Origin: a virus
Lineage: Duplodnaviria > Heunggongvirae > Uroviricota > Caudoviricetes
Length of the DNA stretch: 26,829 nt
Virus record (IMG/VR): IMGVR_UViG_3300017991_000084
Location: 1-26,829 of that record
Reading direction: 5' to 3' (one strand)
The notes beneath the pieces were generated by a model. It was not told the origin of the DNA. It worked only from the letters and a program-made list of their open reading frames with translations, and ran no database searches. Made by a program: the position numbers and the translations under genes. How positions within the stretch are numbered: the stretch's first letter is position 1; each line of letters opens with the position of its first letter. Below are positions 2,595-17,304 of this stretch, in pieces.

Positions 2595-5500
2595 TTACAC
2601 TGGATAGATCTGGCACAGGTCAAAGCTATACCATTCCTGATCCACTTCAGCCTCATTTCCTGTAACCTCCACTGCGTGCTCCGTGACCTTGGCCACCTTG
2701 ACACACTCATAAATGACCCGCATGTTCTTATTCGACATGATTGTCACTTCCGTTCCCTCCTTGATCTCATCGATAGTATCGACGCTCTCATTCAAGCCCA
2801 GAAGCTCACTCGCCAATGAAAACGCAGGATCAATCGATTCCGTCACTTCCTCAGTGACTTCCTCAAACTCCTCGATCTTCTTCTCCGCAACCTCAATTGA
2901 TGGATAAGCTTCCTTGACCGCACTCTTCACAGCCTCACGCAAGGATTCCAAAGTTCCCTTGTACCATGCAGGAGCTGATTCATACTGAGCAACACGCGCC
3001 AAAGCATTCCGTGCCTGATCCTCAGAATTGATTGGGAAGTGATCCTTATCATCACGCACATTCTCATGTGTGGACTGGAAAACACACTCTCCACGATTTC
3101 GAACCTTCGCATCTGGGTCCTTCTCCTCATCCACAGGCTCATCCTCCATCGGACAATCCTCTCCAGCCTCCTTGCGCTTTCCTTTTTTACCCTGATAAGA
3201 ACCTGTACCATCACGTTTCCCAGGCTCATCCTTGCCCTCTTCTACCGCATCTTCCGATTCCTCAACTTCCTCCTCTACCTCGTCCTTACACTTTTCATCT
3301 GCTACTTCCTCTTCCACAGGCTCTTCAGCCTCTTCAACCTCAGCCCCTTCGACCGACTCCTCTGCCTCCATCACCACGTCAGCCGCAGCCATGAATCGAC
3401 TTGAATCAAATCGTGGATTATCTTCCTTGAACATCGCAGCCATCATCTTCGCCAAAGTAGAAGCGGCAGCACGATCCTCCATACCCTTCATCATCTCTGC
3501 GAACTTGATGTAGTACTTCCGTGACAGGGCCTCATCCACCTCGGTAGACTCCGTCGCCACATGTGTAACCTGCTCTCCCCCAGGCTTCTCAGCCAATTCC
3601 ACAGCCACCATATGCTGCTTAGATTTCGGAGGCTTAAATGCAGCTATTGCCTGCTTCTTTGCACCATACAATGAAGTATCATAGATATCCATCTTCTTAC
3701 CATTGTAAAAAGCGACATACCCATTCTTACCCTCATTATCCCCCTCAGACTCCTCGACCTCTTCCGACTCAGCAATCTTCTTCACGGCAGTCACTTTGTC
3801 AACGCCCTTACGCTTGAGCATCATCCTCTCCGCATCATTATCATCCAAAGCCTCAACGCGCATCTCGGCCTCTTCCCCATCATCCTTCAGGTACTTCACC
3901 AAATACACGTGCTTGAATTCACCCTGCTCCTCAACCTTCGATTCTTTCGTATCCATCTCATCCTCCCTACCAAGTGAAATCTCATGATAGTTTCCATGGT
4001 CTGAGACCACCCATACGGGAGGCCAGAACTTATTATCTTCCATCCACTCACGTGCAGCTTGACGCGCCTCGTCCTCGTCATTGAAAGTTCCAATCACCTT
4101 TCCTCCAGCCTTCACCTGAGTCTGACCACCCAAAGATCCTGCTGGTGACAAGAAGATATCATACTCTTCAGGCTCATCCTGATGTTCCTCTTCGCCCTCT
4201 TCTGACCCCTCACCACCAAACTGTGCCTCCAATTCCTTATACATCATCTCTGCCATCTCACCATCATCCGCAACAGACGAATGGCTTGCGCCAGGAGAAT
4301 ACTCAGACGTACTCAAAACCGAATACAGATTACTGTTCTGCCCACTGTGATAGTCACTGGCATACCAGTACATGGCCGCTTCCATGTCAAACTCAGACCC
4401 TTCCTCATCCATCAACGGCTTCAATGCATCCAGCATCTCTTCACGAGTAGGATCTTCGAACTCTGCACTCTCTGACACCTTGGTTCCACTTGAAGCCTCA
4501 GCCAATGCCTCAAACTCCTCCTGTCCCAAGTTCGCCAGTGCATCCTTTGCCAACTCTTCAACGCCAGATTCCGTCAAAGCTCCGTCCTCATGGAACAGCT
4601 CAGCAAACCCTGAATCGAAACTGAACTCTCGCCCGTTCACACTAATGACCGTAGCCTCAGCTCCCTCATCCACCAACTGAACATCGAAGTCATGGCCATC
4701 AAATTCAACTCTCTTTTCAGTCAACTTCGACTCCATAGGACGCATCAGTTCTTTCTTCTTCTTGGGACTCTCCATCTCCTCATCTCCTTCATCGTCCAAC
4801 TCTTCCTCAAAGTCACCCTCCCCCTCAGGTGCCTCCACATCCTCCTCAGCAAATTCATCCTCAGCACCAAGATCGTCCGCAGGAAGATCATCACCAGCCA
4901 GCTCTTCCTCCTCATCCTCCATATCATTGACGATCTCTTGCTCAGCTGCTGGAATGATATACTTTACGATGACCTGACGGTCAATCTCAGAGATACCAAC
5001 ATCACTATCGCGGAAAACAGTGTTCAAGAACAGACTCATATCTGTAGGCTCGATCCCATTCTCTTCAGCTGAGAACAACTGGTTCTCTTCCTGGTCCACA
5101 ATCTTCATGTCAATGATCTCACCCTGATCATTCTTCTCTGGGACCATGTAGAAATGTGTGTCCTCGGACTTGCCCACATACTCCTTGTCCTCTGGGACAG
5201 GAATCTCAGCCTCGTCCTCCATGAAATCTTCCTCAGGCATCTCTTCCTCAGGAGCAAGCTCCTCATCCTCATCTTCCACGAAATCTTCCTCGGCCCCAAC
5301 TTCAGCCTCAGGTTCCTCCTCGAAGTCCTCTTCTTGCTCATTCAACATGTGTGCCGCTAGAAGATGTTCATACGATTCACAAATGATGTCCTCATCCTGC
5401 CTCATGGCTCGCACCCAACCTTGTCTGTAATACGAAATGTAATCTGTGCTCTCACCAAGAGCATCATCCAAGATCTCATCCCAATCAATGGAACAAGGAT

Positions 5501-6833
5501 CTTCACGCTTATCACTCCCACATCCGACCTTACATGTGTCACACTTCCCAGTGTAGCAACAGAACTTGCCCTTCTCTTCTGGGGACAGCTCTGACTTGAT
5601 TCTCTTGAACAGCTCCTTATGTGCAGGAGTCCCATGCTTCATGTCCATAGCCTTGTCCTGCATCTCCTTTGGAAGACGATTAACACGACCATGGAATGGA
5701 GTCACAATGTCCACTTCCGGAACCTTCGCAAAACGAATAGCTTCCTCAGGATTGAAAGCAACTGTCCGAATCCGCACATTCTTCTTTTTCTTCTTCAATG
5801 CCACAGCATCTTCCAATGACAACGAATTGCTGTGAATGCCGTAATCCTTCTCCAGATTATCCACGCTCAGATTTGTAACACCAGTCCGATCAGCCCACTT
5901 CTTGACAAACTCTGGATCTTTTGAAATGGCCTTGATCTGTAGACCGATCTCGTCCGCATCCTTGAACAGAGCCCCCAATGACTCATCATCCTCTGGATTG
6001 TAATCCGAGAATGAGTACAAACGAACACCACCAGAAACATTGAACTTCTTGATGTTCTCCGGACTGAACAGCTTACGCTTTCTCTGAAGCGTCCCAGGCT
6101 TATACTCCACACGACCTGAAATCATGGACGGAGTCTGTGCGCCCATCGTAAATGGTGACTTCCCCTGCACAATAGGCTTAGTCTTCTTGTCCCTCTTATA
6201 TCCAGGCCCAGGCACATGCATCCACTTACGCGCATCAATGTTGTCCTTCACCTGCTGCAAAGACAACCCACCCTGCTTCATGATACGCTCAATCCACTTA
6301 AGTGCATTCTTACGGTTATCCTCCACGTAGCAGTATCCGCAAGGTTTCCCCCTCTTTCGATGTGGGCACTCCATATCGAAATCAATCGAGACCCCTGTCT
6401 TCCCATTGTTTCGAATAGGATCAGACGACAAGTTCGCAGATCTCAAGAAGTAGTTGTAGGCATCCTCAATCTCAGCATCCGTAGGATCATGTGGAGACTC
6501 AGCTTCCTTGTCCGGATCACTGTCATCCTTCACATCGACCTCATCCTTCTCTCCGGTATCCTGAGCAGCCGCATGCCTCTCTTCTTCGCTCTCCTCTTCC
6601 TCCTGAAGGACAGACTCACCCAATGCAGCGCGTACCTTGTCCTCTGGCAGCACATTATGAGTGGAATACATGCTCACAGCCTTGTCCCAATCTTCCACGC
6701 CATACTTCTTCATGAATGCTTGAATATCATTCTTCAACCATTCAGAATCCGTCTCATTCAGATGGAACTCGTGTGACTCTCGAATACTGTCCACCACCGA
6801 AAACAACCTATCAAAGTACGCTTGCCGATCCAT
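2595..6833 (-). CDS. 1412-aa acidic mosaic protein, probable head-internal/core protein, with a GP88/radical-SAM-like domain and several small phage domains
   Basis: Intact long ORF, RBS AAGGAG. Very E/D-rich linkers separate folded islands. Contains a CX8CX2C motif (CPHRKRGKPCGYC), VRLYSFSDY and CCYTGKCDTCKVGC. Adjacent to the protease and capsid genes. Confidence 0.75.
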   Translation of the reverse strand: MDRQAYFDRLFSVVDSIRESHEFHLNETDSEWLKNDIQAFMKKYGVEDWDKAVSMYSTHNVLPEDKVRAALGESVLQEEEESEEERHAAAQDTGEKDEVDVKDDSDPDKEAESPHDPTDAEIEDAYNYFLRSANLSSDPIRNNGKTGVSIDFDMECPHRKRGKPCGYCYVEDNRKNALKWIERIMKQGGLSLQQVKDNIDARKWMHVPGPGYKRDKKTKPIVQGKSPFTMGAQTPSMISGRVEYKPGTLQRKRKLFSPENIKKFNVSGGVRLYSFSDYNPEDDESLGALFKDADEIGLQIKAISKDPEFVKKWADRTGVTNLSVDNLEKDYGIHSNSLSLEDAVALKKKKKNVRIRTVAFNPEEAIRFAKVPEVDIVTPFHGRVNRLPKEMQDKAMDMKHGTPAHKELFKRIKSELSPEEKGKFCCYTGKCDTCKVGCGSDKREDPCSIDWDEILDDALGESTDYISYYRQGWVRAMRQDEDIICESYEHLLAAHMLNEQEEDFEEEPEAEVGAEEDFVEDEDEELAPEEEMPEEDFMEDEAEIPVPEDKEYVGKSEDTHFYMVPEKNDQGEIIDMKIVDQEENQLFSAEENGIEPTDMSLFLNTVFRDSDVGISEIDRQVIVKYIIPAAEQEIVNDMEDEEEELAGDDLPADDLGAEDEFAEEDVEAPEGEGDFEEELDDEGDEEMESPKKKKELMRPMESKLTEKRVEFDGHDFDVQLVDEGAEATVISVNGREFSFDSGFAELFHEDGALTESGVEELAKDALANLGQEEFEALAEASSGTKVSESAEFEDPTREEMLDALKPLMDEEGSEFDMEAAMYWYASDYHSGQNSNLYSVLSTSEYSPGASHSSVADDGEMAEMMYKELEAQFGGEGSEEGEEEHQDEPEEYDIFLSPAGSLGGQTQVKAGGKVIGTFNDEDEARQAAREWMEDNKFWPPVWVVSDHGNYHEISLGREDEMDTKESKVEEQGEFKHVYLVKYLKDDGEEAEMRVEALDDNDAERMMLKRKGVDKVTAVKKIAESEEVEESEGDNEGKNGYVAFYNGKKMDIYDTSLYGAKKQAIAAFKPPKSKQHMVAVELAEKPGGEQVTHVATESTEVDEALSRKYYIKFAEMMKGMEDRAAASTLAKMMAAMFKEDNPRFDSSRFMAAADVVMEAEESVEGAEVEEAEEPVEEEVADEKCKDEVEEEVEESEDAVEEGKDEPGKRDGTGSYQGKKGKRKEAGEDCPMEDEPVDEEKDPDAKVRNRGECVFQSTHENVRDDKDHFPINSEDQARNALARVAQYESAPAWYKGTLESLREAVKSAVKEAYPSIEVAEKKIEEFEEVTEEVTESIDPAFSLASELLGLNESVDTIDEIKEGTEVTIMSNKNMRVIYECVKVAKVTEHAVEVTGNEAEVDQEWYSFDLCQIYPV

Positions 6834-6842
6834 CGAATCTCC

Positions 6843-7190
6843 TTAGAATCCAAAGATTGATCCCTGCTTCAAGGTGTATGTGTTCTCCACATCGTCCGTA
6901 TTTGCCGCCACACTGCCAGCCTTCCTGTAGACCACAACATCATACACACCCTGAGGTAAGTCTGCCGGAACCACCACTGGAAACTGCCCTGTAGTCCCAT
7001 CCTCAACTAGATCCACTGCTGTGTCAACCCATGTAGGACTGTTCTTCAATGCCTTTGCCACGTCATCCCAAATAGAGCTGTCGCCCTTAAAGACGAACCG
7101 AACATAGTAGCTGTTCCCGGTGTGGCCCAACGCATCATAAAAGATACGTTCCATCCATGATCCACTGATTTGATTTCCACCCAAAGCCAT
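6843..7190 (-). CDS. Hypothetical virion-associated protein (beta-rich, Ig-like?)
   Basis: 115-aa ORF with RBS GGAGG. Alternating hydrophobic strands (GQFPVVVP..LPQGVYDVVVY). Confidence 0.6.
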   Translation of the reverse strand: MALGGNQISGSWMERIFYDALGHTGNSYYVRFVFKGDSSIWDDVAKALKNSPTWVDTAVDLVEDGTTGQFPVVVPADLPQGVYDVVVYRKAGSVAANTDDVENTYTLKQGSIFGF

Positions 7191-7678: not shown

Positions 7679-8062
7679 CTACTCCTCATTCGGATCGCCA
7701 CGAGAGGCTTTCCAATTTTCGTAGTCACTAATGTCCATGCCAAGTGCATCTTCCTCATCGAAGTTGTGCCACGGCTCGACTTTCCTCAATGCTTCCAGTG
7801 CGTTCCAAATCACATCATCACCCATGACATGCTCCGGATCTTTCAGCCACCCTTCCAACGCCTCTGGCTTGTTCTCACGGACCCAGTCATAGACACTTTG
7901 TGCTGCGTCTCCACTGCGCACATCTGATGCGAAGTAGTATTGATCACTCAAATTGTTTGCTAGGTTTTCCAGGTCTTGAGCTATCGCATCATACACTGCA
8001 TCGTTGTAGCCGTCCACATCCTCTTCTACTTCCCTAAGGAGTCTGTTGTAGTCACTGTCCAT
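7679..8062 (-). CDS. Acidic hypothetical protein, probable head-internal protein
   Basis: Start MDSDYNRLLREVEED. Acidic composition and N-terminal motif shared with the 1412-aa and 252-aa proteins. Confidence 0.6.
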   Translation of the reverse strand: MDSDYNRLLREVEEDVDGYNDAVYDAIAQDLENLANNLSDQYYFASDVRSGDAAQSVYDWVRENKPEALEGWLKDPEHVMGDDVIWNALEALRKVEPWHNFDEEDALGMDISDYENWKASRGDPNEE

Positions 8063-8069
8063 GTGTCCC

Positions 8070-8357
8070 TCACCCATTCAAAAGATTACCTCTATGAGGT
8101 TGTGCGCGTTCTCTACACACAAAGAAATTTTGCGATAACTTTCGCTCACCATCCTCAGCAAAAAGACCAACCCATGTCCCTGACTGAGTGAAATCGACCT
8201 CAAACCGATACAGTCCATTTCCCACATCATCCAATGTCACTTCCGGAGCCCACTTTCCAGTGGGACTCAGCATCAATGCTGTCACCGTGACACCTTCTTG
8301 GAATGCTGTAGATCGATAGTAGATCTTGTGGCGACCTGGAGGGTATCTTTCAGCCAT
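8070..8357 (-). CDS. Ig-like fold structural protein
   Basis: Pattern LDDVGNGLYRFEVDFTQSGTW is typical of Ig-like/YtkA-type phage domains. Confidence 0.6.
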   Translation of the reverse strand: MAERYPPGRHKIYYRSTAFQEGVTVTALMLSPTGKWAPEVTLDDVGNGLYRFEVDFTQSGTWVGLFAEDGERKLSQNFFVCRERAQPHRGNLLNG

Positions 8358-9623: not shown

Positions 9624-10382
9624 CTATTCAGCCTCCTCCTTACGTTTTCCGCGACCCATCTTTTTGTACAGCTCTTCGTCTTCTGGATGGTCGCACTCAC
9701 CCGCCTCCATCCTCTTCAGCTTGGTGTAATACAGGGGATCTCCCTTCAGATGATCCTTCGCAATCTCCAACGCTACCGCTGGATTACTCGTGTGCTCCAA
9801 CTCATGATGCTGACCCATACGAAGCTGCTCTGGATCAAAATCACCATCCTCTGCATCATCAGCGTCCCCACCTGCCAAGAAATCATCCGTAGTATCATCC
9901 TCTTCCTTCTTTTCCTCTTCCTTCTCTTCTCGATCCGGATTCCTCTCTGCCTTCTTGTAGAGATCGTCTATGGTTCCCTTCAGCCCTCCGGACCCTCCCT
10001 CTTCCTTATCCTTCTTTTCCTCGTCTTTCTCTTCCTCTTCATCCACCTTCTGATCCTCATCGACGGCATACTCAGCGCCATCCTGATCCATCTCCTCCTC
10101 ATCGACTTGACTCTCGTTCGTCTCCTCGACTAGATCAAACTGAAACGGAGCCTCCGCATTCTCCGTTTCATTCACAGACCACTGAGAACCATTGTCTGCC
10201 ACGATCCACCACTGATCGCCCTCATAGACCACGTCCCACTCATTGATATCCAGCGAACGGCCCATGTCCGTATTCTCAAAAGCAATACGAATCTCCTTCT
10301 CTGAGTCCACAGGGCACATGCCCATATCTTCCTGCACCTGAGCCAGCAAACGATCATAGTGAGATCCACTCGTGTTATCCAT
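9624..10382 (-). CDS. Acidic protein with C-terminal DUF5661-like domain, probable head-internal protein
   Basis: LRMGQHHELEHTSNPAVALEIAKDHLKGDPLYYTKLKRME matches the recalled DUF5661 pattern (G..vE.EHT....A..IA.DHL.E.p.YY..L..mE). Acidic linkers and shared N-terminal motif. Confidence 0.7.
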   Translation of the reverse strand: MDNTSGSHYDRLLAQVQEDMGMCPVDSEKEIRIAFENTDMGRSLDINEWDVVYEGDQWWIVADNGSQWSVNETENAEAPFQFDLVEETNESQVDEEEMDQDGAEYAVDEDQKVDEEEEKDEEKKDKEEGGSGGLKGTIDDLYKKAERNPDREEKEEEKKEEDDTTDDFLAGGDADDAEDGDFDPEQLRMGQHHELEHTSNPAVALEIAKDHLKGDPLYYTKLKRMEAGECDHPEDEELYKKMGRGKRKEEAE

Positions 10383-10762
10383 CAGTCCCTCTCCAATCCA
10401 TAGATTTTGTCGGTAGCCTTCTCCAGGATAGAGATGGCCAGTTTCTTGTACTCCCAGTTCCCTTGCTTAATCTCCAACAAAGCATGAGTCAACAAAGAAG
10501 TTGTGGCAACCGCCTCTGTCACTGTCCCCACACCGTGACCCTTGGCCAAACGCTTCAAGGTGGTATGAACACTTTTGCCCTTCAACTTCTCCATCAGCTG
10601 CTTAAGAAGCTGTGCCTCAGTTGGCAATTGCTCCAGTTTCTCTAGACATGCCGATAGCTTCCCGGCTGCATAGAGTCGAGAAGCTTCGGTCACTACATTA
10701 TCGTATCGTGTCCCTCGGAACGTTTGCTCCGCTTCCAAGAGACGCATCTGTGCTTTATTCAT
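10382..10762 (-). CDS. Hypothetical helical protein (126 aa)
   Basis: Translationally coupled to both neighbours (ATGA and TGATG overlaps). Confidence 0.65.
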   Translation of the reverse strand: MNKAQMRLLEAEQTFRGTRYDNVVTEASRLYAAGKLSACLEKLEQLPTEAQLLKQLMEKLKGKSVHTTLKRLAKGHGVGTVTEAVATTSLLTHALLEIKQGNWEYKKLAISILEKATDKIYGLERD

Positions 10763-11598
10763 CCGGACACTCCCACTGGCAACTCGATTGGATCTTCACA
10801 TGATAGGATGCCTTCCAGGACTCGATCCGCTGGCACCAAAAAGCACAGGCCATCATGCTGCACAAACAACCACACGAACATCCCAATGAAGTTCCCATCC
10901 CTATCGAAAGCTGGACCACCAGAATTCCCTTGATTCCCTGGTGCATCAATCTGAATGTATGAATCAATAAAATCGTATGGCCCCATATCCAAACGATTCA
11001 CACAACTCACGATGCCAGATGAAACTGAATGCTCATTTTTCTTTGGTGTGCCCATCAATAAGACCGGCTCGCCCTGAACCACTTCCTGATCCCACTCTGA
11101 TGTAGTAACCGGATGCAGATCCAGGCCCCCTGAATCAAACCAAATGAGCCCCACATCCGGACAATCCCCATATGGGTGAGCCACTTTCAGCACGTCTCGC
11201 ACTGTCCCATCAAAGAACCGAATATACATTCTCTTGATTTCATGTGCTCCCTTTGCCTGCACATTACTCACTACATGTGCAGCTGTCAAGATCAATCCGT
11301 CTCCAATAACCATCCCAGCCGCATACCCTTGAACCGGCTTTCTAGTAATGGGATTGACATGAGTATACTCTGTAAGCACAGCCACAACAGAAGGCATACG
11401 AAAAGCTGTGACACGTGAACTCCAATCATGATTCAAATGCTGAAGCCCATTCCGCAACTGCATGTCCCGACCATAGGACTGGTGTTCGATGTTGTTCATG
11501 CGCTCACGGTGCTTCATCATCCCCCAGTTCACATACCCCAAATTCCCTCCAATGACGATGATCATCAACAGGACAAGTGATGCGATTCGCTTACTCAT
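10759..11598 (-). CDS. Membrane-anchored trypsin-like serine protease (HtrA-type protease domain, no PDZ)
   Basis: Catalytic triad motifs LTAAHVV, PDVGLI and GNSGGP. N-terminal TM segment (IASLVLLMIIVIGG). Start moved to ATG 11598 (RBS GGAGGAG). Confidence 0.9.
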   Translation of the reverse strand: MSKRIASLVLLMIIVIGGNLGYVNWGMMKHRERMNNIEHQSYGRDMQLRNGLQHLNHDWSSRVTAFRMPSVVAVLTEYTHVNPITRKPVQGYAAGMVIGDGLILTAAHVVSNVQAKGAHEIKRMYIRFFDGTVRDVLKVAHPYGDCPDVGLIWFDSGGLDLHPVTTSEWDQEVVQGEPVLLMGTPKKNEHSVSSGIVSCVNRLDMGPYDFIDSYIQIDAPGNQGNSGGPAFDRDGNFIGMFVWLFVQHDGLCFLVPADRVLEGILSCEDPIELPVGVSG

Positions 11599-11636
11599 GG
11601 TTGCTCCTCCGATGTGAATGTGACCTGTTTTTCTAT

Positions 11637-11667
11637 AAAAACAAAAGAGCCCCACTCAAGGCTCTTT
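11637..11667 (-). terminator. Intrinsic terminator
   Basis: 8-bp stem AAAGAGCC (11644-11651) / GGCTCTTT (11660-11667). On the minus strand it runs into TTTTGTTTTT. Confidence 0.75.
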
Positions 11668-14875: not shown

Positions 14876-16255
14876 TTACAGCTGCGCCCGAACGCGAATT
14901 CCCTCAAAATTCCATTCTTTTGTGATTTCGCCGTTCTCGAAGACAGTCACCAACTGATCTTCACCACCACGATCCTGCTGCACGGTACTGAACCCATGGA
15001 CCCCACGGAGAAGCTTCAGACGCCCACGCTTAGACGCCTTGCTGCCATCAATGGGATCTTTGTAGATATCGTACCACGTGCCGTCACGCTTCTGGGCGCT
15101 ACACTTGAACGCGAACCGCTGGGTATCCCGATTGATCTTCTGGAGTAGCCCACCGCCCATGCCGAACGTGGCAATGTTCTCGACGCTCCAGCCCGCATCC
15201 GTGATAGCCACCAGGATCTCCTCGATCTTCTGCTTGTCCAGCCCATCACCCCATAGGACCTTGACCTTCGGATTGATGACCCTGTAACCCTTGCTGTTGA
15301 GTGAGCCACCAAACTTCTCCCAGAGGATCGCCAGCAATCGCAGCACCGTCTCCACCGGATCTCCACTGTCAGGACGCACCACGAACACACCGTCACGCTC
15401 CAGGATCTGCTCACGATAGGTTCCACCGATGATATTCTCCACGGTGTTGTAGATATCGAAACTGTCCGACACCACACTCAGGATGCCTGTAGGATACGCC
15501 TCCAGGAGCTGCCCGATGATCCTCTCTTCACCATCCGGCCCCAAGGAAGTCATGACGCTGTGCTCCGTCGCCGGAACGCTGAAGCCAGCTGCACCCTCGT
15601 GACCGTAGTATTCCTGTGCCGCGACGAGCGCCGCAACCGTATCCGTCCCCTTGAAGTTGATCAGGTGTGCGAGACCACCGATAGCCGCAGCCTCGACACT
15701 GGAGACACCACGGAATCCGAAGTCATGGAGCATGAAGTCCAGAGCCCCATCGTTGTCTGCGGTTTTTTCTGTAAAAACACTGATCATCTTCTTGACTTCA
15801 CGGCTCAACGTAGCCACCGTGCAAGCATGCCACACGTGACACAGAAGAGTTTCCAGGTGATTCGTCAGTGGCGCACAGTGCGGACACGTGTTCTCCACCG
15901 TCATCATGACGTTGCCCACCGGAACGACCGTACCCTCAGGGACTGCCTTGATCCGGATCGGAAGCTTGCCGTCATGGGCGAACCAGATGTGCTCCCACAT
16001 TTTTCTATTGAACAGATCCTTGCTGCCCAAGTGCTGCTCGACCAACAGCTCAGCATCATCGATCTTCGTCTGGGTGACAACCATGCCCTCCAGGTATTCC
16101 TTCAGGAGATACTGAAGGCCGAAGAACACAGTCGAATCGAACTCCGCACCCTCACGAGCCTCGAAGTAGCTGTAGACCGTTTCCGTATCCGGCTGATACT
16201 GCTGCCAATGTGCCAACTTGTAACTGTCTGTCGTCTGAATGATGTTCTTTCTCAT
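14876..16255 (-). CDS. nadV: Nicotinamide phosphoribosyltransferase (NAMPT)
   Basis: Motifs TDSYK, HDFGFRG, PATEHS, SVVSDS, RPDSGDP, WGDG, GMGGGLLQ and RDT. Start at ATG 16255 (RBS GGAGG). Confidence 0.95.
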   Translation of the reverse strand: MRKNIIQTTDSYKLAHWQQYQPDTETVYSYFEAREGAEFDSTVFFGLQYLLKEYLEGMVVTQTKIDDAELLVEQHLGSKDLFNRKMWEHIWFAHDGKLPIRIKAVPEGTVVPVGNVMMTVENTCPHCAPLTNHLETLLCHVWHACTVATLSREVKKMISVFTEKTADNDGALDFMLHDFGFRGVSSVEAAAIGGLAHLINFKGTDTVAALVAAQEYYGHEGAAGFSVPATEHSVMTSLGPDGEERIIGQLLEAYPTGILSVVSDSFDIYNTVENIIGGTYREQILERDGVFVVRPDSGDPVETVLRLLAILWEKFGGSLNSKGYRVINPKVKVLWGDGLDKQKIEEILVAITDAGWSVENIATFGMGGGLLQKINRDTQRFAFKCSAQKRDGTWYDIYKDPIDGSKASKRGRLKLLRGVHGFSTVQQDRGGEDQLVTVFENGEITKEWNFEGIRVRAQL

Positions 16256-16288
16256 AGTTCTGTCCTCCAAAACTTTGCATCAACGCAT

Positions 16289-17173
16289 CTATTTGGAATT
16301 CATGAGCATGTCGTACAACGGACGATGCTCCTCAACGATCTTCTCTCTCAAACCTTCCACCTCGATCCAAGCCAGCTCCGAAATATCATCATCCGGCAAG
16401 GGTCTGCCAAACATGTGCTTGGCCTGGAAAAAGGCTGTCACTGTGCCATCCAGCTCCCGACGATACCGCCAGTCATCGATAGGACAGCTGCCCACATACT
16501 GAGGATCTGTGATCTCGATATGGGCCTCTTCCGCGACCTCCCTGCGACATGTTGCTTCCAAGGATTCCCCAGGACTGACGAAACCACCGATGAAACGATA
16601 CAGCTGCTCATTGGGCTTCTTCGCCACCAGAAGATGAGTACACGCCTCATTCCAGATAGCCACGTCCACTGTGGGGAATGTTGTCGGATGCCGATTGTAT
16701 GCTGCCCAGACCACGCCCGCACGGAAACATGGATGTGACTTGACATGAGCGCCAAGCTTCTTCCGCACTATGGTCCCTGATTGGTACACCGACTCCTCGA
16801 TTTCTTCCGTGTCATACTTCCCTGTGTAGTGATCGATGAAGGATTCACGTCCTCCGTAGAGCACCACCGTCGCCATCGGCCCGACTAGATCTCGGATCTG
16901 CTGGTCCAGGTTCTTGCTCCACACGTCATCCGAAGGCACGTCCTTGATATACAATACGTTTACGTTCGGATACCCGTTGAGAATCATCTGCTTCCGGGAT
17001 TCAAAGTCCAGTGGGTTATTGCGCGTCACCCTCGCTGGAGATAGACCCAGAAACAGGAGCACCTTCTCGTGCTTCCGCACCACACTGTTGATCAATTGCT
17101 TGTGTCCCTCGTGCAGCTCATCCACCTGGAATCGCCCAACGAGTACACCGACTTCTGCCACTTCCTGATTCAT
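16289..17173 (-). CDS. nadM: Bifunctional NMN adenylyltransferase / Nudix ADP-ribose pyrophosphatase (NadM-Nudix, NatV-like)
   Basis: GRFQ..LHEGH (HxGH) nucleotidyltransferase motif plus Nudix box GFVSPGESLEATCRREVAEEAHI. Start at ATG 17173 (RBS AAGGAG); the ORF-track start 17233 is also possible. Confidence 0.93.
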   Translation of the reverse strand: MNQEVAEVGVLVGRFQVDELHEGHKQLINSVVRKHEKVLLFLGLSPARVTRNNPLDFESRKQMILNGYPNVNVLYIKDVPSDDVWSKNLDQQIRDLVGPMATVVLYGGRESFIDHYTGKYDTEEIEESVYQSGTIVRKKLGAHVKSHPCFRAGVVWAAYNRHPTTFPTVDVAIWNEACTHLLVAKKPNEQLYRFIGGFVSPGESLEATCRREVAEEAHIEITDPQYVGSCPIDDWRYRRELDGTVTAFFQAKHMFGRPLPDDDISELAWIEVEGLREKIVEEHRPLYDMLMNSK

Positions 17174-17222
17174 ACCTGTCTCCTTTCGCATCATCGCATC
17201 TAAAGAAACAATTGTAGGTCTC

Positions 17223-17304
17223 TTGGTCCTCATTTATTCCCCAGCAGGGAGGACTCCACGATGGCTGGGCCAGATGTCTTCATGTCACCTACTTGGAAGA
17301 CCAA
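17223..17304 (-). ncRNA. Candidate structured leader RNA (H-type pseudoknot with competing fold)
   Basis: Manual pairing: CCCAGC/GCTGGG, GTCCTC/GAGGAC, and the alternative TTGGTCTTC/GAGGACCAA. Confidence 0.35.

Follow-up and report, generated by a model that had tools for sequence, protein, structure and literature searches.

The stretch of DNA analyzed here (the window; 26,829 nucleotides) makes up the first 26.8 kb of a contig of 90.8 kb from an uncultivated T4-like phage (IMG/VR record IMGVR_UViG_3300017991_000084), and our subject is one of its genes, P0001. This open reading frame (ORF) of 1412 codons (2595-6833; like every gene of the window described below, it lies on the minus strand) has an AAGGAG ribosome-binding site 6 nt upstream of its ATG and adjoins genes for a prohead protease-scaffold protein and a major capsid protein. 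On balance, P0001 probably encodes a polyprotein of the prohead core that is cut by the neighboring S77 protease, a reading drawn from the sequence and its relatives. Near-identical DNA is present in sediment and seawater metagenomes, and no RNA runs are listed among the sequencing runs that contain it.

The predicted product is very acidic. Glu makes up 16.0% and Asp 9.2% of its residues (25% together), the net charge is -192, and in a 21-residue sliding window linkers of 40-67% Asp plus Glu alternate with stretches low in both. The first-pass annotation, made from the letters of this DNA, had described P0001 as beads on a string, and the frame and this alternation bear it out; each peptide it had quoted also lies at the DNA position it had been given (DPTREEML...SPG at residues 794-848, YDIFLS...DHGN at 891-948, KNGYVAFYNG...THV at 1036-1092, LSRKYY...SSRF at 1103-1147 and DHFPINSEDQARNALARV at 1264-1281). 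Altogether 11-12 conserved blocks can be distinguished, with acidic linkers between them.

At the N-terminus stands a candidate leader (residues 1-19; 6777-6833) ending in I-R-E↓S, where the arrow, here and below, marks a candidate cut site. It is followed by block N (residues 20-73; 6615-6776), which ends in L-G-E↓S and has a counterpart of 49% identity in the related polyprotein P0005, and by a basic domain (residues 122-455; 5469-6470; charge +13) whose AlphaFold2 (AF2) model, fold-search matches and invariant cysteines point to a radical-SAM-like (GP88-like) iron-sulfur (Fe-S) protein. Blocks C (residues 550-632; 4938-5186) and D (residues 703-780; 4494-4727; P-M-E↓S-K stands ahead of it) form a family-wide core, found in 19 proteins of 337-1314 residues and in 21 proteins, respectively. 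Block E (residues 795-870; 4224-4451) has complete stand-alone homologues of 90-127 residues at 52-62% identity; block F (residues 890-952; 3978-4166) occurs in one to three copies in the multi-domain proteins P0031, P0040 and P0132; and block G (residues 972-1019; 3777-3920), with T-K-E↓S-K ahead of it, recurs in P0004, P0005, P0010, P0024, P0025, P0028 and P0080. Next come block H (residues 1036-1091; 3561-3728), which lies between V-E-E↓S and A-T-E↓S and matches phrog_19202 (7e-12), and block I (residues 1100-1150; 3384-3536), which is also present in P0004, P0005, P0010 and P0020 and whose match to phrog_2922 (4e-7) covers positions 684-735 of that family's 1237-position profile. A basic motif, PGKRDGTG...KRKxAGExCPME (residues 1203-1230; 3144-3227), is shared with P0005, P0008, P0010 and P0054 at 62-83% identity; its fuller form, PGKRDGTG(P/S)Y.G..GKRK.AGE.CPME, usually stands directly ahead of block J (residues 1245-1318; 2880-3101). 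Block K (residues 1336-1412; 2598-2828) closes the chain, and is C-terminal also in P0004, P0005, P0010, P0011, P0015, P0024 and P0025. The enzyme-like domain is the one clearly basic piece; H carries +4 and I +1, and C, D, E and K range from -10 to -16.

Pfam scans found no significant family in P0001 or its islands, and no match for the basic motif or for blocks C, D and K. The first-pass annotation had called the island corresponding to block J DUF6582-like; the island stands, but the family label is weak, the Pfam match being sub-threshold (E 0.05; 14.3 against 27.3 bits). The stand-alone block J homologues P0140 and P0060 score 17-18.5 bits against the PF20223 gathering score of 27.3, which suggests a relation to DUF6582 (PF20223) that is at best remote. 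An Atlas feature search with blocks C-D was uninformative (scores at most 0.77). When 50,697 isolated phage genomes were searched with tblastn, neither block J, block I, blocks C-D nor the 115-residue protein encoded upstream of P0001 had a match, and the whole of P0001 had a single one, a Moorella phage gene, by way of the enzyme-like domain.

The first-pass annotation had also placed a protease next door, and rightly so. P0002 (732-2567) joins a T4 gp21-type S77 prohead protease to an acidic linker and a coiled-coil scaffold (PF03420, 2.4e-10, beyond the family cut-off; phrog_207, 1.7e-29) and is the presumed processing enzyme of P0001; it is followed by P0003 (1-717), the N-terminal part of a gp23-like major capsid protein (phrog_138, 1e-7; Pfam Gp23, 1e-3). 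Directly upstream of P0001 is the conserved gene for a 115-residue protein (6843-7190), which has no family match in our family scans and has homologues of 45-83% identity at the same place in five other loci. The order of a gene for a protein of about 112 residues, polyprotein, S77 protease-scaffold and gp23-like capsid protein is found at six loci including that of the window phage; in the five others, all metagenomic, the polyproteins span 862-1314 residues and the protease-scaffold proteins 592-1235.

The leader of P0001 has counterparts nearby. Of the 144 ORFs of the contig, just three have the motif [YF].?[DN]RL[LF] at the N-terminus, all of them encoding acidic head-module proteins: P0001 itself, a 252-residue protein (9624-10382) that begins with HYDRLLAQVQE and carries a DUF5661 domain (PF18905, 3.6e-11), and a 132-residue protein (7679-8077) that begins with DYNRLLREVEE and has no family match. 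In locus L001 the leader end is kept as V-R-E↓S. The relatives P0008, P0016 and P0018 begin with MDKYFDLI[ADG]E, as compared with MKTYQEFIAE in the T4 capsid-targeting sequence (CTS), and positions 4, 7, 8 and 10, which are critical in T4, are matched or similar. By this resemblance the P0001 leader is a candidate capsid-targeting sequence. At locus L021 (1001-2249) a gene of the block E family (119 residues) adjoins a GP88-family gene (PF17338, 4e-34), and both products share a leader of about 27 residues, R[LI]FEVM..LD..FKP...[LI]NE↓S, which looks like a lineage-specific capsid-targeting sequence.

All of the hydrophobic-x-E-S sites cited in the first-pass annotation are present in P0001 (IRES at 19, LGES at 73 and 461, ICES at 486, IAES at 1022, VEES at 1028 and 1192, VTES at 1332 and LNES at 1349), and they are far more frequent than composition predicts: there are 11 [LIVM]-x-E-S sites where 2.7 are expected, a count reached in none of 500 shuffles, with plain [LIVM]-x-E showing no enrichment (44 against 43 expected). 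P0002 likewise has six [LIVM]xES sites against 1.5 expected, and P0001 and P0002 are the top two outliers among the 144 ORFs; the other 142, pooled over the 90.8-kb contig, have 17 such sites against 22.6 expected. The third-ranked ORF, which encodes 609 residues and lies outside the window (contig C1, 42919-44748), has three against 0.8 expected and could be another substrate of the protease, such as the portal protein.

The stretches between islands account for 26% of the residues of P0001 and hold 15 of its 21 x-x-E-S sites, and at least one site is found at nine of the 11 block boundaries. Near relatives keep sites while the adjacent linkers diverge or change length, for example RPME↓S before block D, TKE↓SK before and AE↓SK after block G, and LDE↓A or VTE↓S before block K; the site before D is kept in P0004 and P0005 and takes the form EEP[LV]E↓SKK in distant members. 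Ten distant relatives together have 51 copies of E-S-K where 9.3 are expected (z about 14), often as E-S-K-[VIT]-[ND], and in the family as a whole the residues enriched at P3 before x-E-S are P, T, A, V and L. A Glu↓Ser rule fits the S77 family, since T4 gp21 cleaves after L/I-x-E (PMC9026906) and its SPN3US homologue gp245 cleaves after A-x-E with Ser preferred at P1' (PMC10052503). The capsid protein P0003 has I66-S67-E68↓S69, identical in L001, close to the position at which T4 gp23 loses its propeptide of 65 residues (PMC9026906).

These observations bear on the idea that P0001 is an uncut multi-domain protein, associated with the virion or not, in which E-S serves for phosphorylation or binding or simply reflects how the linkers are composed. 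Acidic linkers of low complexity are indeed common in proteins that are never cleaved, and some x-x-E-S sites sit inside blocks (284, 755, 1285 and 1296). An uncut protein would nevertheless leave it to chance that the enrichment is confined to the two head-core proteins of the contig, that the motif agrees with the P1 Glu and P1' Ser preference of the protease family (PMC9026906, PMC10052503), that it marks block junctions and flanks an inserted cassette, and that E-S-K recurs in distant relatives; we therefore consider this explanation quite improbable and regard cutting by the adjoining protease as the better account of the junctions.

A comparison of related loci, which the first-pass annotation had proposed, finds that domain content does vary between homologues. 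P0004 is 82% identical to P0001 over residues 374-1021 and 1332-1412 and lacks H and J, with a different segment in their place. P0005, in the same gene neighborhood, is without the 330-residue enzyme-like domain and without E, F and H, and it carries three different blocks. Block H is absent from both, its flanks joined directly: P0004 reads ...VEE↓SEEVDEALSRKYY, and P0001 has H between VEE↓S and ATE↓STEVDEALSRKYY, so that H looks like a clean cassette inserted between two E↓S sites. In a profile-free exhaustive search of 1.84 billion representatives with residues 545-1412 as query, followed by local mapping, only C and D proved family-wide (in 19-21 proteins), at a spacing of about 40 to 364 residues from each other; G, I, J, K and the basic motif were variable. 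We also looked for cassette polymorphism in contigs of three metagenome runs, in which related-strain fragments often have loose ends over the P0001 gene. The two joints recovered, skips of 514 and 137 bases seen in one contig each and not multiples of three, were too weak, and we discarded them.

Several of the variable islands have lives of their own, as the first-pass annotation had suspected; stand-alone homologues exist for H, E, J and the enzyme-like domain. Block J is present in 128 of the 150 best exhaustive-search matches, many of them complete proteins of 103-200 residues, and its homologues, like those of block E, were confirmed as whole genes in contigs. In N4-like phages, block H corresponds to an annotated gene of 61 residues that lies in their early-to-middle region. 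The polyproteins P0025, P0028 and P0080 contain DUF5661 as an island; in the window phage this domain has a separate, acidic, leader-bearing gene. At locus L023 three genes follow one another: a solo J gene, one with a product that begins ...VLTE↓SK, and a DUF5661 gene, again solo. The first-pass annotation had named invariant domain content without stand-alone island homologues as counting against it; since content varies and such homologues exist, the opposite is found. The best explanation of these comparisons is that the blocks other than C and D are interchangeable passengers, encoded elsewhere as separate genes, some of them leader-bearing.

Block J also lies inside P0006, the protease-scaffold protein of another phage (55% identity). 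A zinc-ribbon-like block, CPKCG..M..GAPH.EG....WEC..CG, is found in P0006 (L002, 10001-13708), which has a divergent second copy as well, and N-terminally in the polyprotein P0018 (L018, 4375-8319). Its presence in both types of gene indicates that the protease-scaffold genes (592-1235 residues) carry swappable islands too.

Such modularity has to be set against the possibility that P0001 is purely an assembly scaffold like T4 gp22, gp67 and gp68, that is, a chain which fills and shapes the core, is chopped up and loses essentially all of its fragments by the time the DNA has been packaged, with nothing delivered to the host, the variable blocks being tolerated passengers or a means of tuning assembly. 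The extreme acidity (-192) resembles that of the T4 core proteins that are cleaved and mostly removed (PMC9026906), C and D are constant in all family members, the gene directly precedes the protease-scaffold gene, and the protease-scaffold genes carry variable inserts themselves. A scaffold of this kind leaves unexplained, however, a conserved Fe-S enzyme fold with invariant cysteines, blocks with early or non-structural stand-alone homologues and the rapid swapping of blocks among near-identical phages; in addition, folded domains of 6-40 kDa, unlike peptides, would probably not pass out through the pores of the capsid. We judge a scaffold and nothing more to be unlikely, and prefer a core polyprotein in which C and D probably serve assembly, as their presence in every relative makes them more likely structural than cargo, and the remaining blocks are carried along.

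The enzyme-like domain (residues 122-455) is the one part of P0001 for which we modeled a fold. A single-sequence AF2 model was unusable, with a predicted local distance difference test (pLDDT) score of 42.7, and a model from an 11-sequence alignment reached a pLDDT of 71.8 and a predicted template modeling (pTM) score of 0.72. In a structural search of 48,161 representative chains with the latter, the top 32 matches were all radical SAM enzymes at moderate Z-scores of 9.3-6.5, led by QueE (Z 9.3, root-mean-square deviation 4.1, 194 residues aligned), pyruvate formate-lyase (PFL) activase (9.0), spore photoproduct lyase (8.9) and viperin (8.4). Foldseek against the PDB gave weak rows only (best 4.5e-3); against AFDB clusters there was a radical SAM match at 5.8e-5, and the AFDB clusters, BFVD and Atlas neighbors converge on radical SAM, GP88, DUF7227 and DUF5131. 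An alignment of relatives shows an invariant C156-x8-C165-x2-C168 followed by Y-V, together with a C-terminal group of five cysteines, CC-x4-C-x2-C-x3-C. The canonical C-x3-C-x2-C of the radical SAM superfamily is not matched by the domain, and in relatives of 605 residues the first Cys lies about 50 residues upstream; longer first loops are known in some QueE enzymes. Pfam and NCBIfam scans of the domain gave nothing above threshold, the sub-threshold matches being variant_rSAM at 0.068, DUF5131 at 0.14 on P0007 and viperin/StsB at 1e-3 on the Moorella phage homologue. The domain thus reads as a predicted, divergent member of the radical SAM fold with non-canonical Cys spacing.

A relation to GP88 is suggested only by language-model neighbors, which are GP88, DUF7227 and DUF5131 clusters, and by weak Foldseek rows. 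The GP88 profile (PF17338) matched neither P0001 nor its homologues, and an hhalign comparison of the enzyme-domain alignment with the L021 GP88 protein gave a probability of 1%.

Relatives of the domain occur in P0009 (421 residues), as a stand-alone 231-residue gene of Moorella phage MTATph1, in the 605-residue family and in giant proteins of 2393 and 2880 residues. The genes of the 605-residue family lie within a T4-like baseplate module, a late structural context, and the N-termini of this family are CTS-like in look (for example MRFKDFMTE and MKFKDLMKE). At L006 (3581-6834) a 477-residue tRNA nucleotidyltransferase gene stands directly before that of a 607-residue protein ending in the radical-SAM-like domain.

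One of these giants brings up a further explanation, that P0001 is a classical polyvalent protein (Iyer et al., 2017), packaged whole and either processed by a peptidase of its own, a zincin MPTase or a fused assemblin-like domain, or active unprocessed after injection. The 2880-residue protein (L009) has a HELGH zincin motif after the enzyme domain, and a chain of many domains in a phage late module is what polyvalent proteins look like (PMC5512222). In P0001 itself, profile scans found no peptidase or known polyvalent domain (no fold was modeled for the unassigned blocks), the protease has an adjoining gene to itself, and the junction motif suits the S77 family rather than a zincin. A self-processing or intact polyvalent protein is accordingly very improbable here, and processing in trans by P0002 remains our preferred reading.

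The remaining features of the neighborhood stand apart from this argument. The head module also contains a trypsin-like serine peptidase with a hydrophobic N-terminus (10759-11655; PF13365, 5e-22), a homologue of which lies upstream of the polyprotein in L019 as well; the model proposed below does not account for this second protease. Farther along is an NAD salvage pair, a nicotinamide phosphoribosyltransferase (14876-16270; phrog_448, 4e-159) and a cytidylyltransferase/NUDIX fusion of NadR/NMNAT type (16289-17233). At L020 (11881-14093) the gp23-like capsid gene appears to be in two Gp23-matching ORFs with a gene between them that carries a Tn7 TnsA-like endonuclease N-domain, a split that may reflect a homing-endonuclease or intron-type insertion.

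Taken with the gene order, the junction motif and the turnover of blocks, the features described above allow a sequence of events to be proposed, in which loading, cutting and the fate of the pieces are what we infer. P0001 would be made late, together with the protease-scaffold and capsid proteins, and its short N-terminal leader, similar to the T4 CTS, would bring it into the core of the assembling head. There the S77 protease encoded by the next gene would cut after Glu at x-x-E↓S(A) sites within the acidic linkers, freeing about a dozen small proteins and a radical-SAM-like Fe-S enzyme of about 40 kDa.

Several observations weigh against this proposal. The acidity of the chain (-192, with C, D, E and K acidic in themselves) is unlike that of basic internal proteins. 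The leader has 19 residues rather than 10 and resembles the T4 CTS only loosely. Block limits were defined by conservation and composition, with a fold modeled for the 330-residue domain only. The motif [LIVM]xES had been picked out by eye from this sequence in the first-pass annotation, which is why we turned to independent controls, namely the protease-scaffold protein, the rest of the contig and distant relatives; as a family-wide rule the hydrophobic P3 had to be rejected, several distant members having no [LIVM]xES excess, and it is confined to the window phage and its near kin. Finally, the capsid protein of L002 has I-I-D↓T where P0003 has I-S-E↓S, and the capsid cut site is therefore only partly useful as independent confirmation.

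What would become of the pieces is a separate matter. T4 internal proteins are basic, and the acidic core proteins of T4 are degraded and mostly leave the head (PMC9026906). Because most of the P0001 pieces are acidic, unlike T4 internal proteins, we hold it possible, though rather doubtful, that they are kept in the head and ejected into the host. In favor of cargo, the passengers resemble T4 internal proteins in their evolution and tagging, and elsewhere H and the enzyme domain have homologues encoded by ordinary, non-structural genes, as would suit proteins acting early in infection. The first-pass annotation had proposed a scaffold-associated polyprotein of effectors; its modularity, genomic context and junction motif all hold up, but the acidity speaks against a simple likeness to the internal proteins of T4. 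More speculatively, the system might work as plug-and-play delivery, in which a single chain is addressed to the capsid, its joints follow the cutting rule of the head protease, and any small protein, a radical-SAM-like Fe-S enzyme included, can be added as a cassette to be packed, released and injected ahead of gene expression, with the same modules shifting between polyprotein, leader-tagged solo genes and ordinary early genes of other phages; we advance this tentatively, as less likely than not.

Should loading and cutting proceed as proposed, the T4 rule of a CTS plus gp21 cleavage would no longer be limited to a single protein per gene but would cover a natural polyprotein with several cargoes, and the idea of polyvalent proteins would gain a cut-site rule that can be read from sequence. 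Gain and loss of cassettes between cut sites would let uncultivated T4-like phages change their payload quickly. Blocks E, F, G, H, I and J are possible early-acting effectors, as are DUF5661 and the GP88/radical-SAM-like enzyme, the last of which would need to survive inside the virion. In practical terms, cassettes flanked by cut sites would offer a ready-made way of filling T4-type capsids with more than one protein. Were the scaffold explanation alone true, P0001 would still be an unusual, modular head-core protein.

To place P0001 among known systems, we compared it with five groups of proteins. The T4 internal proteins IPI, IPII, IPIII and Alt likewise come from a phage whose protease is of the gp21 type and whose capsid protein is of the gp23 type. 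They carry a leader ending in hydrophobic-x-E (MKTYQEFIAE), which the start of P0001 relatives (MDKYFDLIxE) resembles, and are cut after Glu, as is presumed for P0001; the payload, proposed as such in P0001, is in both cases diverse and fast-changing, with no role in the shell. They differ in that the T4 proteins have one protein per gene and one cut, whereas P0001 has about a dozen domains and about 15-20 candidate sites; in that the former are basic and the P0001 chain carries -192; and in that loading and ejection, demonstrated in T4, are proposed for P0001. P0001 has no sequence homology to the T4 IPs or Alt.

With the core proteins gp22, gp67 and gp68 of T4, P0001 shares its acidity, a head-core location (proposed in its case) and a gene beside that of the protease, and where these proteins are cut at many L/I-x-E sites (PMC9026906) it likewise has many candidate sites. 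However, gp22, gp67 and gp68 have 80-269 residues and no recognizable enzyme or swappable domains, their fragments mostly exit the head, and family scans detected no homology between them and P0001.

Polyvalent proteins join 2-15 unrelated domains in one polypeptide, occur in a late or packaging context with solo versions of their domains elsewhere, and have been proposed to be packaged in the head, proteolytically processed and delivered with the DNA (PMC5512222). The multi-domain chain, the late context and the solo domain versions are common to both, and the course of events proposed is alike. Of the polyvalent domain vocabulary (MuF, ART, MPTase, ArdC-N and others) none was detected in scans of P0001, and GP88 and radical SAM do not appear in the text of PMC5512222. 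Processing of polyvalent proteins has been assigned mainly to in-chain zincins, whereas for P0001 it would fall to a separate S77 protease acting at repeated linear sites in the long, acidic linkers.

The giant phages SPN3US, phiKZ and 201phi2-1 also have an S77-type protease (gp245/gp175) that cuts after x-x-E with a preference for Ser at P1' (PMC10052503); they make multiple cuts in long propeptides and hold a large mass of internal head protein. In these phages, though, each substrate gives a single mature protein once its N-terminal propeptide is removed, strings of independent domains have not been described, and tblastn across isolated phages found no homology between P0001 and their ejection proteins.

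The fifth comparison is with the radical SAM superfamily, with which the enzyme domain shares a partial (beta/alpha)6 TIM-barrel core, its best matches being the QueE, PFL activase, spore photoproduct lyase and viperin enzymes named above. As in that superfamily, three invariant Cys follow the first strand, the last two as C-x2-C and then an aromatic residue; the domain differs in its C-x8-C-x2-C (about x50 in the 605-residue relatives) in place of C-x3-C-x2-C and in the extra C-terminal Cys cluster. A full-text literature search found no description of such a polyprotein, and what distinguishes P0001 from all of these systems is the combination of many domains per chain, joints suited to a separate prohead protease, extreme acidity of the linkers and a radical-SAM-like domain.

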